Below, in pieces: positions 28,815 to 47,627 of a stretch of DNA of 64,000 nt. How positions within the stretch are numbered: the first letter of the stretch is position 1; each line of letters opens with the position of its first letter. The notes beneath the pieces are model-generated. The model made no database searches, had not been told where the DNA came from, and saw only the letters and a list, made by a program, of their open reading frames with translations. A program made the translations under genes and the position numbers. Source of the DNA: Clostridia bacterium (GTDB taxonomy: Bacteria > Bacillota > Clostridia > TANB77 > CAG-465); the NCBI GenBank assembly GCA_045534225.1, contig JAZSJJ010000001.1, positions 54,800 through 118,799 on the forward strand, read 5' to 3'.

Positions 28815-28845
28815 CCGTAAATTAATACGGGCTCTTATTTTTTTA
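28815..28845. terminator. Bidirectional terminator after clpX
   Basis: cccgtaaattaatacggg hairpin followed by a T-run. Confidence 0.7.
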
Positions 28846-29187
28846 CTCAAAAGCTTCGCTCATGTGAGCAAGTCTTTTAGCATTCCATGAGATGTTTTTG
28901 GCCAAAATTGTCTTAGCTAAAGGAAGGAAGATATCATCATCCTTGATAGCATCGAAGAAACCTTTGAAGTTTGAAAAACTGGTATCTTCACACATAAATC
29001 GGAATACTCTTTCGAAATATTCTGTTGTAAGTTCTAGTTGTCCCTTGCCGGGTTTACGGTATCTGCAGTTTGGCAGATCATCGCTTAAATATTCCTTCCA
29101 AGCCAACATTACAATCTTGCCGTCTAAGCAAGTAAAAGTGTAATGGGTGGGGTTTTTCTTCGAATCAACACATGAAAAGGTCTGCAT
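28843..29187 (-). CDS. Hypothetical small protein, paralogue A of a tandem pair; GC-elevated (about 40%)
   Basis: Shares an FxxxC-DxxF-x-KGF...D-xF scaffold with the 29315 ORF. Has its own RBS (AAAAGGAGAAAC) and terminator. Confidence 0.45.
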   Translation of the reverse strand: MQTFSCVDSKKNPTHYTFTCLDGKIVMLAWKEYLSDDLPNCRYRKPGKGQLELTTEYFERVFRFMCEDTSFSNFKGFFDAIKDDDIFLPLAKTILAKNISWNAKRLAHMSEAFE

Positions 29188-29314: not shown

Positions 29315-29671
29315 TTACGCTTCTTCGAGCGCAAGTGACATTCTACGGATTTTATTTGCCATGGAACCAATGTATCCAGCAATAATTCTTTCTGCATCCT
29401 TTCTAAATGTCTCATCCATATTCAGTTGTTCAAGAAATCCCTTATAGTCAGTAAAGACAGGATCGGTGCAGACCACTCTAAATGCCTTATCAAACAAAGG
29501 CTTGGAGATAGGGTGCTGCCCTTTTGTGGGATTGGCGTACGCTTCTACGGCAACTACTTTGCTGGAAGCTTTACATACAGAAAGCTTTACCAGTTTGCCT
29601 TCGGAAAATTTGAAGTCGTACCTAATTTTACTGTGATGGTCGGTTGCTTGAAAAGTCTTCAATCTAAACAC
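29315..29671 (-). CDS. Hypothetical small protein, paralogue B of the tandem pair; GC-elevated
   Basis: RBS TTAAGGAG before the ATG. The terminator is a gagctcacag..gcgagccc hairpin. Similar to 28843. Confidence 0.45.
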   Translation of the reverse strand: MFRLKTFQATDHHSKIRYDFKFSEGKLVKLSVCKASSKVVAVEAYANPTKGQHPISKPLFDKAFRVVCTDPVFTDYKGFLEQLNMDETFRKDAERIIAGYIGSMANKIRRMSLALEEA

Positions 29672-29806
29672 TCCTTAAATTATTATAGTGGCTTATAATA
29701 CTGACCATATTTATTATAACATATAAATAGAGCAGAGGTCAAGGAAAATAGTAGACATAATTTCGCTAAATAGATATTTTTGTAAAAACGAGAGGAAAGA
29801 AAAAAA

Positions 29807-29867
29807 GAACAAATATTCGATAATTTTAGCAAAAAGTGTTGACAAACAATTGTTCTTTATATATAAT
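29807..29867 (+). promoter_or_regulatory. Consensus sigma-A promoter (TTGACA-17-TATAAT) with two one-mismatch LexA (Cheo-box-like GAAC-N4-GTTC) dyads
   Basis: TTGACA at 29839-29844 and TATAAT at 29862-29867. Dyads GAACAAATATTC (29807-29818) and AACAATTGTTC (29845-29855, inside the spacer). Confidence 0.45.
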
Positions 29868-29898
29868 TAAAGCAGAACAAAGGTTCGGAGGTAATATT

Positions 29899-30195
29899 AT
29901 GAAAAGATATAGAGTAAATTATAAAAGAGTATGTACAAATATAATAGTATTAGCAGTTATATTCATGATATTTAACGCTTTTACCAATATTACATTTGGT
30001 TCAAGAAATATACAAACTAAAACAATACGTGTAGAACGCAATGATACTTTATGGAGCATCGCTTCAGATATATGCAAAGCTTCTACCGAAGAATTAAACG
30101 TACAAAATGTTATTATACAAATTAAGCATATAAACAACTTAACAGAAAGTACAATATATTGTGGTCAAGAATTGAATGTTCCTATATATATGTAG
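29899..30195 (+). CDS. Small TM-LysM protein, a candidate YneA-like SOS cell-division inhibitor
   Basis: GGAGG RBS. Basic N-terminus then one TM helix then a C-terminal LysM (IRVERNDTLWSIASDI..LNVP). About 98 aa, the same architecture as B. subtilis YneA. Confidence 0.5.
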   Translation: MKRYRVNYKRVCTNIIVLAVIFMIFNAFTNITFGSRNIQTKTIRVERNDTLWSIASDICKASTEELNVQNVIIQIKHINNLTESTIYCGQELNVPIYM

Positions 30196-30293
30196 AAATA
30201 ATATATAATTCCCTTTAGGCAGCTATTAATTTAGTTGCCTTATTTTTATACATATGATAATATGTATTTGTAACACATATATGAGGTGATTGT

Positions 30294-31538
30294 ATGGATG
30301 AAAATAAGAAAAAAGTTGTAGAAAATGATATAAATATAGAAAACCAAGAAAATAATACCAATACTGAAAATACTGAGATAAATCGACTTCCTAAAAGGCC
30401 AAATAAGGCGTTTTTTATTTCAATAGGTGTAATATGTGGTCTGTTATTATGTGCAATTTATATGATTATTCGTCTACCAGATGAAATTCCAACTACATTA
30501 GCTAATACGAGAATTGAGAGGTTTAAGGGTAAAGATTATTACATTTATACATACAATGGTGTATATAGCGGTGAACATCAAAATGTAACATACTTATTAG
30601 ATGCAGAAAATAAAAATGCAAATGAGCATCTTAAAGAAGTTATGACATATGATCAATACGTAGAGTTTTGTACAGAAAGAAATATAGATATTAAATATAC
30701 TGACACAAACAAAAATTATATTGTATTATCTTATACTAGTTATAGCCATTGTTATGGTAGACTTGCAGATGTTGAAAATCTAGGTAAAGTAATAGCACTA
30801 TATGTTTGGGATCAAATAAAAGGAGTTCCTAGTCCTTCTATAGTACATGGATATGCTATAATAATACCTACAGATGCTAGTACACAAACTATAGTTAATG
30901 TTGTACCTATGTATATTGAGCAAGAATTTGAAAAGATTACTAATGCAATAGAGTTCCCCAATATATTAAATCAAGGAGATATGATGGTTAAAAAACCTGT
31001 TATATATCTATACCCTACAAAAGATACTAAAGTAGATGTAAAACTTGTAAATAAGGAGCTGTTAACTTGTACATATCCAAAATACACAAATGGATGGTCT
31101 GTACTTGCTAAACCGAATGGAGATTTAACATATATAGAAACAGGAAGAAGCTTGTATTCGTTATATTATGAGGCGGATAGTTTAATAGACTTTAAAGTTA
31201 CAGATGAAGGCTTTGTAATTAAAGGTGAAGATTCTGCTACATTCTTAGAAGAAAAACTAGAAATATTAGGTTTAAACGCGCATGAAACAGAAGAATTCAT
31301 TATATACTGGTTACCTAAATTAGAAGCTAATGAATATAATTATATAAGATTTGCTACTAAAGAGGAAATTGATGCTAATATGCCTTTAGAGGTTACTCCA
31401 AATCCAGATAGTGTAATTAGAGTCCTAATGACATTTAAAGGCTTAAATTCGCCTATAAGCGTCAAGGAACAAGTATTAGAAACACCTAAAAGAGATGGAT
31501 TTGTTTTAGTAGAGTGGGGCGGTACAGAAATTAAGTAA
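30294..31538 (+). CDS. Hypothetical membrane-anchored protein with a large extracytoplasmic domain
   Basis: Polar Asn/Glu-rich N-terminus, a single TM helix and then about 340 aa with no recognised family. A hairpin terminator lies at about 31588-31615. Confidence 0.4.
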   Translation: MDENKKKVVENDINIENQENNTNTENTEINRLPKRPNKAFFISIGVICGLLLCAIYMIIRLPDEIPTTLANTRIERFKGKDYYIYTYNGVYSGEHQNVTYLLDAENKNANEHLKEVMTYDQYVEFCTERNIDIKYTDTNKNYIVLSYTSYSHCYGRLADVENLGKVIALYVWDQIKGVPSPSIVHGYAIIIPTDASTQTIVNVVPMYIEQEFEKITNAIEFPNILNQGDMMVKKPVIYLYPTKDTKVDVKLVNKELLTCTYPKYTNGWSVLAKPNGDLTYIETGRSLYSLYYEADSLIDFKVTDEGFVIKGEDSATFLEEKLEILGLNAHETEEFIIYWLPKLEANEYNYIRFATKEEIDANMPLEVTPNPDSVIRVLMTFKGLNSPISVKEQVLETPKRDGFVLVEWGGTEIK

Positions 31539-31636: not shown

Positions 31637-32596
31637 TTATTTTAATTTATTTAATGGATTATTATCTATAGCAGATTTAACTTCATCACTATCTATATGA
31701 GTATATATTTGAGTTGTAGCTATTGTTTCATGTCCTAATACTTGTTGTAATGTTCTAATATCTACACCAGCGTGTTTATGCATTAATGTAGCTGCAGTGT
31801 GTCTAAGCTTATGTGGTGTATATTTTTTGGGATCAAGCCCAGCACTTATTATATATTGTTTAACCATTATTTCTACCATTCTAGGAGATATACGTTTATA
31901 CTTTTTACTTATAAATAATGCGCGTCTATCGTCGCCTTTAACCTTATCAACCGGTCTAACCTTAAGATAAGCTTCAATAGCGTCTAAACAGGCCTTATTT
32001 AGGTGCACAGAGCGTTCTTTGTTACCTTTACCAATAACGGACAATGTATCGCCTTTAATATGTTCTAAATTGATTCCTACAAGCTCAGAAAGACGCAAAC
32101 CACAGTTTAGAAAGACTGTAAGGATAGCATAATCTCTTTCTTTGAACTCGCCTTGGACAGAGTGGAGTAGGGCAAGTGACTCATCTAGATTTAAATATTT
32201 TGGTAATCTTTTTTCTAATTTTGGTGCTTCAAGCCCAGAAGTTGGATTTCTTTCAATTTTTTTAGAAATATCACATAAATATTTATAAAATGATTTAATT
32301 GATGAAATTTTACGAGCTCTTGAAATTGCTTTAGTATTTTTATCATATAAATAATTATATATATCTGAAGTTTCTACAGATTTAAAAAAATTTAAATCTA
32401 AATCTGAAATATCAATTTCTTTATAATTTTCAATTTTAATATTATATTTATCACGTTTAATAAATTGAAAAATATCTCTAAGATCATAATAATATTCATT
32501 AACAGTATTTTTAGATCTGTTTTTAGTAATGATTAGATAATTCTTAAGGTAATCTTGCAAAATTACCGGCAAATCGTCATAAGACGGATGTTTCAT
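31637..32596 (-). CDS. Tyrosine site-specific recombinase (XerC/XerD-like integrase)
   Basis: C-terminal catalytic motifs R..HxxR..Y (RHTAATLM..LGHETIATTQIYTHI) and an N-terminal SAM-like core-binding domain. GGAGGT RBS before ATG 32596. Confidence 0.8.
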   Translation of the reverse strand: MKHPSYDDLPVILQDYLKNYLIITKNRSKNTVNEYYYDLRDIFQFIKRDKYNIKIENYKEIDISDLDLNFFKSVETSDIYNYLYDKNTKAISRARKISSIKSFYKYLCDISKKIERNPTSGLEAPKLEKRLPKYLNLDESLALLHSVQGEFKERDYAILTVFLNCGLRLSELVGINLEHIKGDTLSVIGKGNKERSVHLNKACLDAIEAYLKVRPVDKVKGDDRRALFISKKYKRISPRMVEIMVKQYIISAGLDPKKYTPHKLRHTAATLMHKHAGVDIRTLQQVLGHETIATTQIYTHIDSDEVKSAIDNNPLNKLK

Positions 32597-33060
32597 AAAT
32601 ACCTCCAAAAAGTGACGCTCTAGAATCGATTTTAAGACGTTTTTATTAATGGGGCCATATAGTTTGACCTTGAAAAAAAGGCCCCTAAAACGCCAAAATG
32701 GAAAATAGGGCTAAAATGACTAATTTTGTATATAGACACATATATAATGTATAAAATTTTATAAAATGTATATACAGATATATAATTATGTAGTAGAATA
32801 ATTAGAGTAAGACAAGTAAGAGAATATATATGTATAAATAAATAAAAAATATATATACGTAATTAGTCAAAGAGCCTAGAAAGGCTTAATATACATATAT
32901 AATATCAGAAGAGGGCTTCATATGCAATAGTTCCTTCTCCAAAATACACAAAATATCTATTTTGCGAAATAACACATAACAAAATAAGAGCCTTTCTTCT
33001 TATGGACTACTTCTTCTATTATGTGTTAATTTCGTTTTTTTAATTTTGTATTCTACTTTA

Positions 33061-47527: not shown

Positions 47528-47627
47528 AATATTTTCGCCCCCCTTTTCAACACTGCAAGTATACCAAATCACACAGTGATTGTCAATCGTTTTTGAAAAC
47601 GTTTGTTCTTTTTGCTAAAAATATATT

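Follow-up and report, generated by a model that had tools for sequence, protein, structure and literature searches.

In Gram-positive bacteria, the characterized SOS inhibitors of cell division share a common synteny: YneA, ChiZ, DivS and SosA are all encoded divergently from lexA (PMC6851548). Bacillus subtilis YneA acts through FtsW and through peptidoglycan, which is bound by its residues D46 and T47 (PMC13396833). Among the Clostridia, the Clostridium thermocellum gene Clo1313_1450 is YneA-like and divergent from lexA (Clo1313_1449), with three LexA sites in the region common to the two genes (Hebdon et al. 2021, PMC8457756), and a lexA mutant of C. difficile forms filaments (PMC4689574), which shows that division in this class can be blocked under LexA control. 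Here we analyze a yneA-like gene from an uncultured Clostridia bacterium of the TANB77 lineage (CAG-465). It lies within a stretch of 64,000 nucleotides of contig JAZSJJ010000001.1 (positions 54,800 to 118,799), referred to below as the window, and encodes a 98-residue protein behind a consensus sigma-A promoter that carries three LexA-type dyads. From these sequence elements, their statistical exceptionality and phylogenetic conservation, and from the architecture and family relationship of the protein, we propose, with a probability of roughly 0.78, that the gene is a LexA-repressed SOS cell-division inhibitor gene of the YneA family in an uncultured gut lineage of Clostridia.

The likeness to B. 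subtilis YneA extends from the protein to its promoter. Both products have about 100 residues, an N-terminal transmembrane (TM) helix and, at the C-terminus, a LysM domain, predicted to be extracellular here as well, with a D-T peptidoglycan-binding motif; both promoters carry several Cheo-type LexA operators, putative ones in the window; and YneA is the best and sole strong family match of the 98-residue protein. The window gene differs in that it is not divergent from lexA, has no partners resembling yneB or ynzC, appears to be monocistronic with a terminator of its own, and is found at the replication terminus, next to an Xer-type recombinase gene and a dif-like site. Its product also scores below the curated cutoff of the YneA model, and its function is a prediction. 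Clo1313_1450, likened here by its description, is another clostridial gene for a YneA-like TM-LysM protein behind LexA sites (PMC8457756), and its arrangement recurs in two distant relatives of the window gene (L021 and L023), whereas no linkage to lexA is seen for the window gene or for any relative of at least 42% protein identity. YneA of Listeria monocytogenes and ChiZ (Rv2719c) of Mycobacterium tuberculosis, again likened by description, are LexA-regulated, single-pass LysM proteins and act as inhibitors of division upon DNA damage (PMC6851548); unlike the window gene, both are encoded divergently from lexA, and ChiZ is larger and has a reported hydrolase activity. SosA of Staphylococcus aureus and DivS of Corynebacterium glutamicum are likewise small, SOS-induced, single-pass membrane inhibitors of division with an extracellular C-terminus (PMC6851548), but they lack LysM, show no sequence similarity to the 98-residue protein and adjoin lexA. 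SulA of Escherichia coli is comparable as a LexA-repressed division inhibitor that is removed by proteolysis; it differs in being cytoplasmic, in binding FtsZ, in its unrelated fold and in its LexA box, CTGT-N8-ACAG.

A preliminary description of the region, made from the letters of the sequence, had proposed a perfect sigma-A promoter carrying two near-consensus LexA boxes. The promoter is where that description placed it. TTGACA-N17-TATAAT occurs in exact form only once in the 64-kb window (0.07 copies expected), and in a local promoter scan it was the sole promoter to score 12/12. The two boxes were also found as described, about 20 bp upstream of the -35 hexamer and inside the spacer (operators 1 and 2, Table 1), each with one mismatch to GAAC-N4-GTTC, and the first A of operator 2 is also the last A of the -35 hexamer. 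What had been overlooked is a third and better box, operator 3, the only perfect GAAC-N4-GTTC dyad in the window. A search with the 14-mer CGAACNNNNGTTCG, allowing up to 2 mismatches, returned three matches in the window, all inside the same 82 bp (29806-29887). Three such matches within 100 bp are expected about 1.6e-4 times and were seen in 0 of 300 Markov simulations. Across about 300 kb of same-lineage sequence, GAAC-N4-GTTY is nearly confined to the yneA-like promoter. By their positions, in the spacer and at about +1 to +12, operators 2 and 3 are placed such that a bound repressor would interfere with RNA polymerase. The gene has its own terminator-like hairpin after the stop codon and so looks monocistronic.

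For calibration we fetched 80 metagenomic clostridial lexA loci (L024-L103) and searched their 74 unique upstream regions by de novo expectation maximization with no prior pattern. Independent starts converged on a palindrome, tC[A/G]AAC-ATAT-GTT[T/C]Ga, with 16.1 bits of information, which is a Cheo box. This motif stands in for a calibration in the host and, being derived from other Clostridia, may not equal the preference of the host LexA. As a position weight matrix (PWM) applied to the whole window, it ranks operator 3 (14.7 bits), operator 2 (13.9 bits) and operator 1 (12.0 bits) first to third, followed by a site of 9.7 bits, in agreement with the earlier assignment of the boxes to the Cheo type. 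Among the lexA promoters themselves, the best site scores 16.7 bits at the median, 13.1 bits at the 10th percentile and at least 12 bits in 69 of 74 cases; outside lexA promoters, 8 sites of at least 12 bits were found in 448 kb. Set against the lexA-promoter best sites, operators 2 and 3 rank above the 10th percentile and below the 25th. At the G position of the motif, clostridial lexA operators carry A in 63% and G in 36% of cases, so that the AAAC "mismatch" of operator 2 is in fact the commoner clostridial half-site variant, a point missing from the preliminary description, as was the location of the gene away from lexA. The commonest perfect dyad in the sampled lexA promoters is AAAC-N4-GTTT (28 loci), followed by GAAC-N4-GTTC (19 loci). 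LexA of C. difficile binds GAAC-N4-GTTT or GAAC-N4-GTTC operators in vitro (PMC4234289), and the motif of C. thermocellum LexA obtained by DNA affinity purification sequencing is that of B. subtilis (PMC8457756).

Close relatives of the protein (64-98% identity) come from uncultured "Clostridia bacterium" metagenome-assembled genomes and from gut metagenomes, for example of sheep rectum. An exact look-up of the 98-residue protein in an assembly index gave no record. A scan of a genome collection returned close relatives at 87-98% identity, plus a multi-LysM amidase (L015) that was set aside, as it matched via its LysM repeats only. When 10 orthologous promoters are aligned, 23 of the 24 columns within half-sites show no variation, compared with 5 of 12 columns in the N4 spacers (Fisher, 6e-4) and 21 of the 67 remaining promoter columns (2e-8). 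The half-sites of operator 3 and the AAAC and GTTC half-sites of operator 2 are invariant across all 10, and those of operator 1 are kept in 9. Their spacers vary, from AATT to GCGC or GCAC in operator 2 and from AAAT to ATTT in operator 1. Half-sites that are fixed while their spacers drift are characteristic of a protein that binds DNA as a dimer and not of an RNA stem. Where operator 2 has a GC-rich spacer (the L002 group), the PWM scores it too low because the spacers on which the matrix was trained are AT-rich.

The layout persists at greater distance. Identity to the more distant orthologues is 36-42% upstream of operator 1 and 78-83% in the promoter core, and an in-spacer operator fused to the -35 hexamer, together with an operator between the -10 hexamer and the ribosome-binding site, is found at 53% (L016), 45% (L017), 44% (L020) and 42% (L022) protein identity. 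The in-spacer position is also occupied in L021 and L023, and a dyad between the -10 hexamer and the ribosome-binding site is present in every one of these six relatives examined. In L021 and L023 (34-35% identity), where the gene is divergent from lexA, the yneA-side promoters have all three positions (before the -35 hexamer, in the spacer and after the -10 hexamer), from which we conclude that the three-operator promoter is ancestral and has travelled with the gene.

The protein has the architecture given in the preliminary description. A basic N-terminus (MKRYRVNYKR) is followed by one TM helix, with residues 15-33 as the best 19-residue hydropathy window (mean 2.26), and by a C-terminal LysM domain (residues 44-95; Pfam, E 4.9e-7). 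An AlphaFold2 model based on 84 relatives (mean predicted local distance difference test score, 88.6) agrees, with a high-confidence helix at residues 8-29 and a beta-alpha-alpha-beta fold at residues 40-95, and a family profile searched against PDB matched LysM domains only. The YneA-like identity proposed earlier is likewise borne out by NCBIfam: NF010723, "cell division suppressor protein YneA", matches at E 1.2e-14 over positions 5-86 of the 87 in the profile, and it is the only NCBIfam model to match the window protein at E 1e-3 or better. All 22 close homologues examined match the same model with 49-54 bits, and generic LysM families at only about 1e-4. D49 and T50, in a DTLW motif, are the counterparts of D46 and T47 of B. 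subtilis YneA, and T50 is near-invariant in the family; the LysM domain thus has the residues for peptidoglycan binding, which is itself predicted. A HMMER search of 1.84 billion representative proteins returned 86 at E 1e-10 or better, many of about 95-105 residues and aligned end to end. A full-length alignment is also obtained with a relative encoded divergently from lexA (35% identity, E 3e-19). A sporulation LysM protein of the SpoIIIM or SafA type was considered and rejected: there is no NCBIfam match besides YneA at E 1e-3, and the promoter combines a sigma-A consensus with LexA operators.

Several observations weigh against a LexA-repressed division inhibitor, some of them on the side of the protein and others on the side of its regulation. 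The protein scores 54 bits on NF010723 and thus does not reach the curated equivalog cutoff of 60 bits. B. subtilis SpoIIIM also has a TM-plus-LysM topology and cannot replace YneA (PMC13396833), so the architecture alone is no proof of function; swapping either the LysM domain or the TM segment with that of SpoIIIM abolishes YneA activity, the specificity residing in TM residues (PMC13396833), and the residues needed there for binding FtsW could not be mapped onto the 98-residue protein. With the lexA-linked relatives only 34-35% identical, one could suppose that the promoter is controlled by LexA and that the product serves some other SOS-linked role in the envelope, such as wall remodelling or anchoring, with no inhibition of division. 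We consider this unlikely. The YneA model is the sole strong match and spans both the TM helix and LysM, and a lexA-adjacent relative (P0149) obtains a nearly equal score of 57 bits. Of 84 short, full-length relatives, 28 match the YneA model with an E value of 2e-16 or lower, which corresponds to about 60 bits, and these place the protein in a continuum with model-called YneA, yet narrowly under the threshold itself. Repression of a consensus promoter by three operators is what a toxic product would need, and every small, SOS-induced protein of the TM or TM-LysM kind that has been characterized in Gram-positive bacteria inhibits division (PMC6851548).

On the regulatory side, operator 1 is weaker than 90% of the lexA-promoter best sites and is the least conserved of the three at a distance, being present in L020 and L022 and absent from L017. 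A tblastn search with clostridial LexA, and the accompanying look for recA and uvr genes, found none of them in the window or in any same-lineage syntenic locus. One of the lexA loci (L048; GC 0.30) is assigned to the lineage tentatively, on tetranucleotide similarity alone (r = 0.815), a signature that discriminates poorly, as the lexA-coupled control L023 reached r = 0.72. In L048 (3860-3965), lexA follows a 423-residue gene and has a single operator, GAACTTTTGTTTGA (13.5 bits), which overlaps the -35 hexamer TTGACT and at the same time lies within the terminator hairpin (13-bp stem) of the gene upstream. With the host lexA not found and LexA binding itself predicted, the dyads might be bound by another regulator or be kept for promoter or mRNA reasons, with the gene outside the SOS regulon; operator 3 is self-complementary, lies in the 5' untranslated region and could form a small RNA hairpin by the ribosome-binding site. 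This we hold to be very improbable, since a motif learned from lexA promoters alone singles out exactly these three dyads as the top sites of the 64 kb, the three-box layout recurs in relatives whose intergenic region is common to the gene and lexA, the half-sites are conserved as against the varying spacers, and GAAC-N4-GTTY is rare elsewhere in the same-lineage sequence covered. Least credible of all is that a mobile element or prophage remnant, tied to the tyrosine recombinase encoded 1.4 kb downstream, carries the gene as cargo, and that its product is an SOS-inducible phage membrane or lysis-type protein in place of a host checkpoint protein. Filamentous-phage-like prophages are indeed integrated just past the recombinase gene in relatives, and the slot between that gene and the yneA-like gene is variable. 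The 21-bp repeat that delimits the prophage, however, lies beyond the recombinase gene as seen from the yneA-like gene, the recombinase is of the host type (XerC/XerD-like), and both genes are present with or without the prophage (L002 and L019 with it, L006 and L020 without). The order tig-clpP-clpX, yneA-like gene, recombinase, SNase-YebC-SLT-polA is moreover retained over the whole range of protein identity between 98% and 42%.

If the gene is indeed a LexA-repressed, YneA-family division inhibitor gene, we envisage the following cycle. In undamaged cells, LexA dimers would occupy the three operators of the consensus promoter, and those in the spacer and over the start site would exclude RNA polymerase or block its escape. 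Upon DNA damage, RecA-stimulated self-cleavage of LexA would empty the sites and release a burst of short, monocistronic mRNA. Three operators on the strongest possible promoter would thus keep a presumably toxic product tightly silent and then allow a steep induction of high amplitude. Judged by its homology to B. subtilis YneA, the protein would span the membrane such that the basic N-terminus is cytoplasmic and the LysM domain faces outward; the TM helix may dock on the septal peptidoglycan polymerase FtsW while LysM binds peptidoglycan. Septal peptidoglycan synthesis, and with it division, would be halted while the DNA is being repaired, until extracellular proteases of the CtpA/DdcP type clear the protein (after PMC13396833).

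Table 1. Coordinates of the yneA-like gene, its promoter and neighboring features, as positions in the window.
Feature	Position	Strand	Remarks
Operator 1, GAACAAATATTC	29807-29818		3' end 20 bp before -35; one mismatch to GAAC-N4-GTTC
-35 hexamer, TTGACA	29839-29844	+	Invariant in 10/10 orthologous promoters
Operator 2, AAACAATTGTTC	29844-29855		Within -35/-10 spacer; one mismatch to GAAC-N4-GTTC
-10 hexamer, TATAAT	29862-29867	+	17-bp spacer from -35; invariant in orthologues
Operator 3, GAACAAAGGTTC	29875-29886		Perfect dyad at about +1 to +12; abuts ribosome-binding site
Ribosome-binding site, GGAGG	29887-29891	+	7 nt upstream of ATG; invariant in orthologues
yneA-like open reading frame	29899-30195	+	98 residues, stop codon 30193-30195; NCBIfam YneA model and Pfam LysM
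Terminator-like hairpin and T-run	30217-30250	+	Intrinsic type; directly after stop codon
118-residue protein gene	29315-29671	-	Divergent neighbor; no Pfam or NCBIfam match
114-residue protein gene	28843-29187	-	Product a tandem paralogue of the 118-residue protein (31% identity, E 2e-17); no Pfam or NCBIfam match
414-residue protein gene	30294-31538	+	Predicted membrane-anchored; no family match; in variable slot between yneA-like and recombinase genes
Tyrosine recombinase gene	31637-32608	-	XerC/XerD-like; 232 bits on XerC model, below cutoff; 1.4 kb downstream
dif-like imperfect palindrome, ATACACAAAA-TATCTA-TTTTGCGAAA	32961-32981		Core AAATATCTATTTTGCGAAATA; about 350 bp upstream of recombinase gene

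All relatives of at least 42% identity have the yneA-like gene at the same locus, separated by one variable slot from tig-clpP-clpX and by another from the convergent recombinase gene, beyond which lie the SNase, YebC, SLT and polA genes. An adjacent, divergent lexA was met neither in the window nor in any of these relatives. The survey of lexA loci gives a measure of how unusual this is. A YneA-like gene is encoded divergently, no more than 600 bp upstream of lexA, in 30 of the 69 clostridial lexA loci with enough upstream sequence, and the low-GC loci (26-30%) are mostly without one. The rule that the division inhibitor adjoins lexA is therefore far from general in Clostridia, and an unlinked gene is less exotic than the literature suggests. 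The yneA-like gene of the window appears to have been detached from lexA and fixed between clpX and the Xer-type recombinase gene at the terminus, with its three-operator promoter retained.

That the window spans the replication terminus is seen from its GC skew, which runs from +0.10 to +0.24 over 1-32 kb and from -0.13 to -0.26 over 32-64 kb; the cumulative skew peaks near 32-34 kb, and about 3 kb separate the yneA-like gene from this switch. Nearly all large open reading frames are on the plus strand to the left of 31.6 kb and on the minus strand to the right. The window and most relatives have a single copy of the dif-like site. L002 and L003 have two copies (L002, 11669-11689 and 18339-18359), which flank a 6.65-kb insertion with Zot and Phage_CRI matches; the insertion resembles a filamentous (inovirus-like) prophage that has entered a site of the Xer/dif type. 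A comparable prophage (Zot, Phage_CRI) occupies this slot in L019 and is missing from the sister locus L020; the core repeat of the dif-like site was not found in either locus. With the detached gene about 3 kb from the terminus, beside a single Xer-type recombinase gene and a dif-like site used by prophages, the placement might be functional and no accident, an idea that we regard as distinctly doubtful. Should it hold, the position may lower gene dosage and reduce leaky expression of a toxic product, or alternatively may couple division arrest to termination and chromosome-dimer resolution.

The genes that flank the yneA-like gene are less constant. The 118- and 114-residue proteins are encoded upstream, behind near-consensus promoters of their own; one or two copies are found in close relatives, and other genes take the slot at a distance. 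The promoter of the 118-residue gene, TTGACC-18-TATAAT, lies about 65 bp from operator 1, so the dyads probably do not serve this neighbor. The downstream 414-residue gene was considered as a conserved partner and rejected: the corresponding slot of L020 encodes an unrelated protein of 439 residues, and L002 and L006 have no gene there.

Elsewhere in the window, a single GAAC-N4-GTTT dyad (47597-47608; GAACAAACGTTT on the minus strand) scores 9.4 bits with the lexA PWM. It lies 10 bp upstream of the -35 hexamer of a TTGACA-17-TATACT promoter that precedes a two-gene operon, with products of 67 residues (about 47526-47326) and 108 residues (47324-46998). The latter weakly resembles ParE toxins (E 6e-4, below cutoff). 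The operon could encode an SOS-linked toxin-antitoxin pair, or the dyad could be there by chance.

Taken together, the yneA-like gene is a well-supported but ordinary example of its kind, unusual only in its location at the replication terminus, away from lexA. Its practical value is for annotation and for the reconstruction of SOS regulons, and it leaves the understanding of the SOS checkpoint unchanged. It offers a clean regulatory case, in which a consensus promoter would be silenced by three operators. A search for SOS division inhibitors confined to the neighborhood of lexA would miss a gene of this kind, as it is unlinked. On the reading preferred here, that of a LexA-repressed inhibitor of the YneA family, the gene would extend the YneA-type DNA-damage checkpoint, known mainly from Bacilli, to an uncultured, low-GC, gut-associated lineage of Clostridia.

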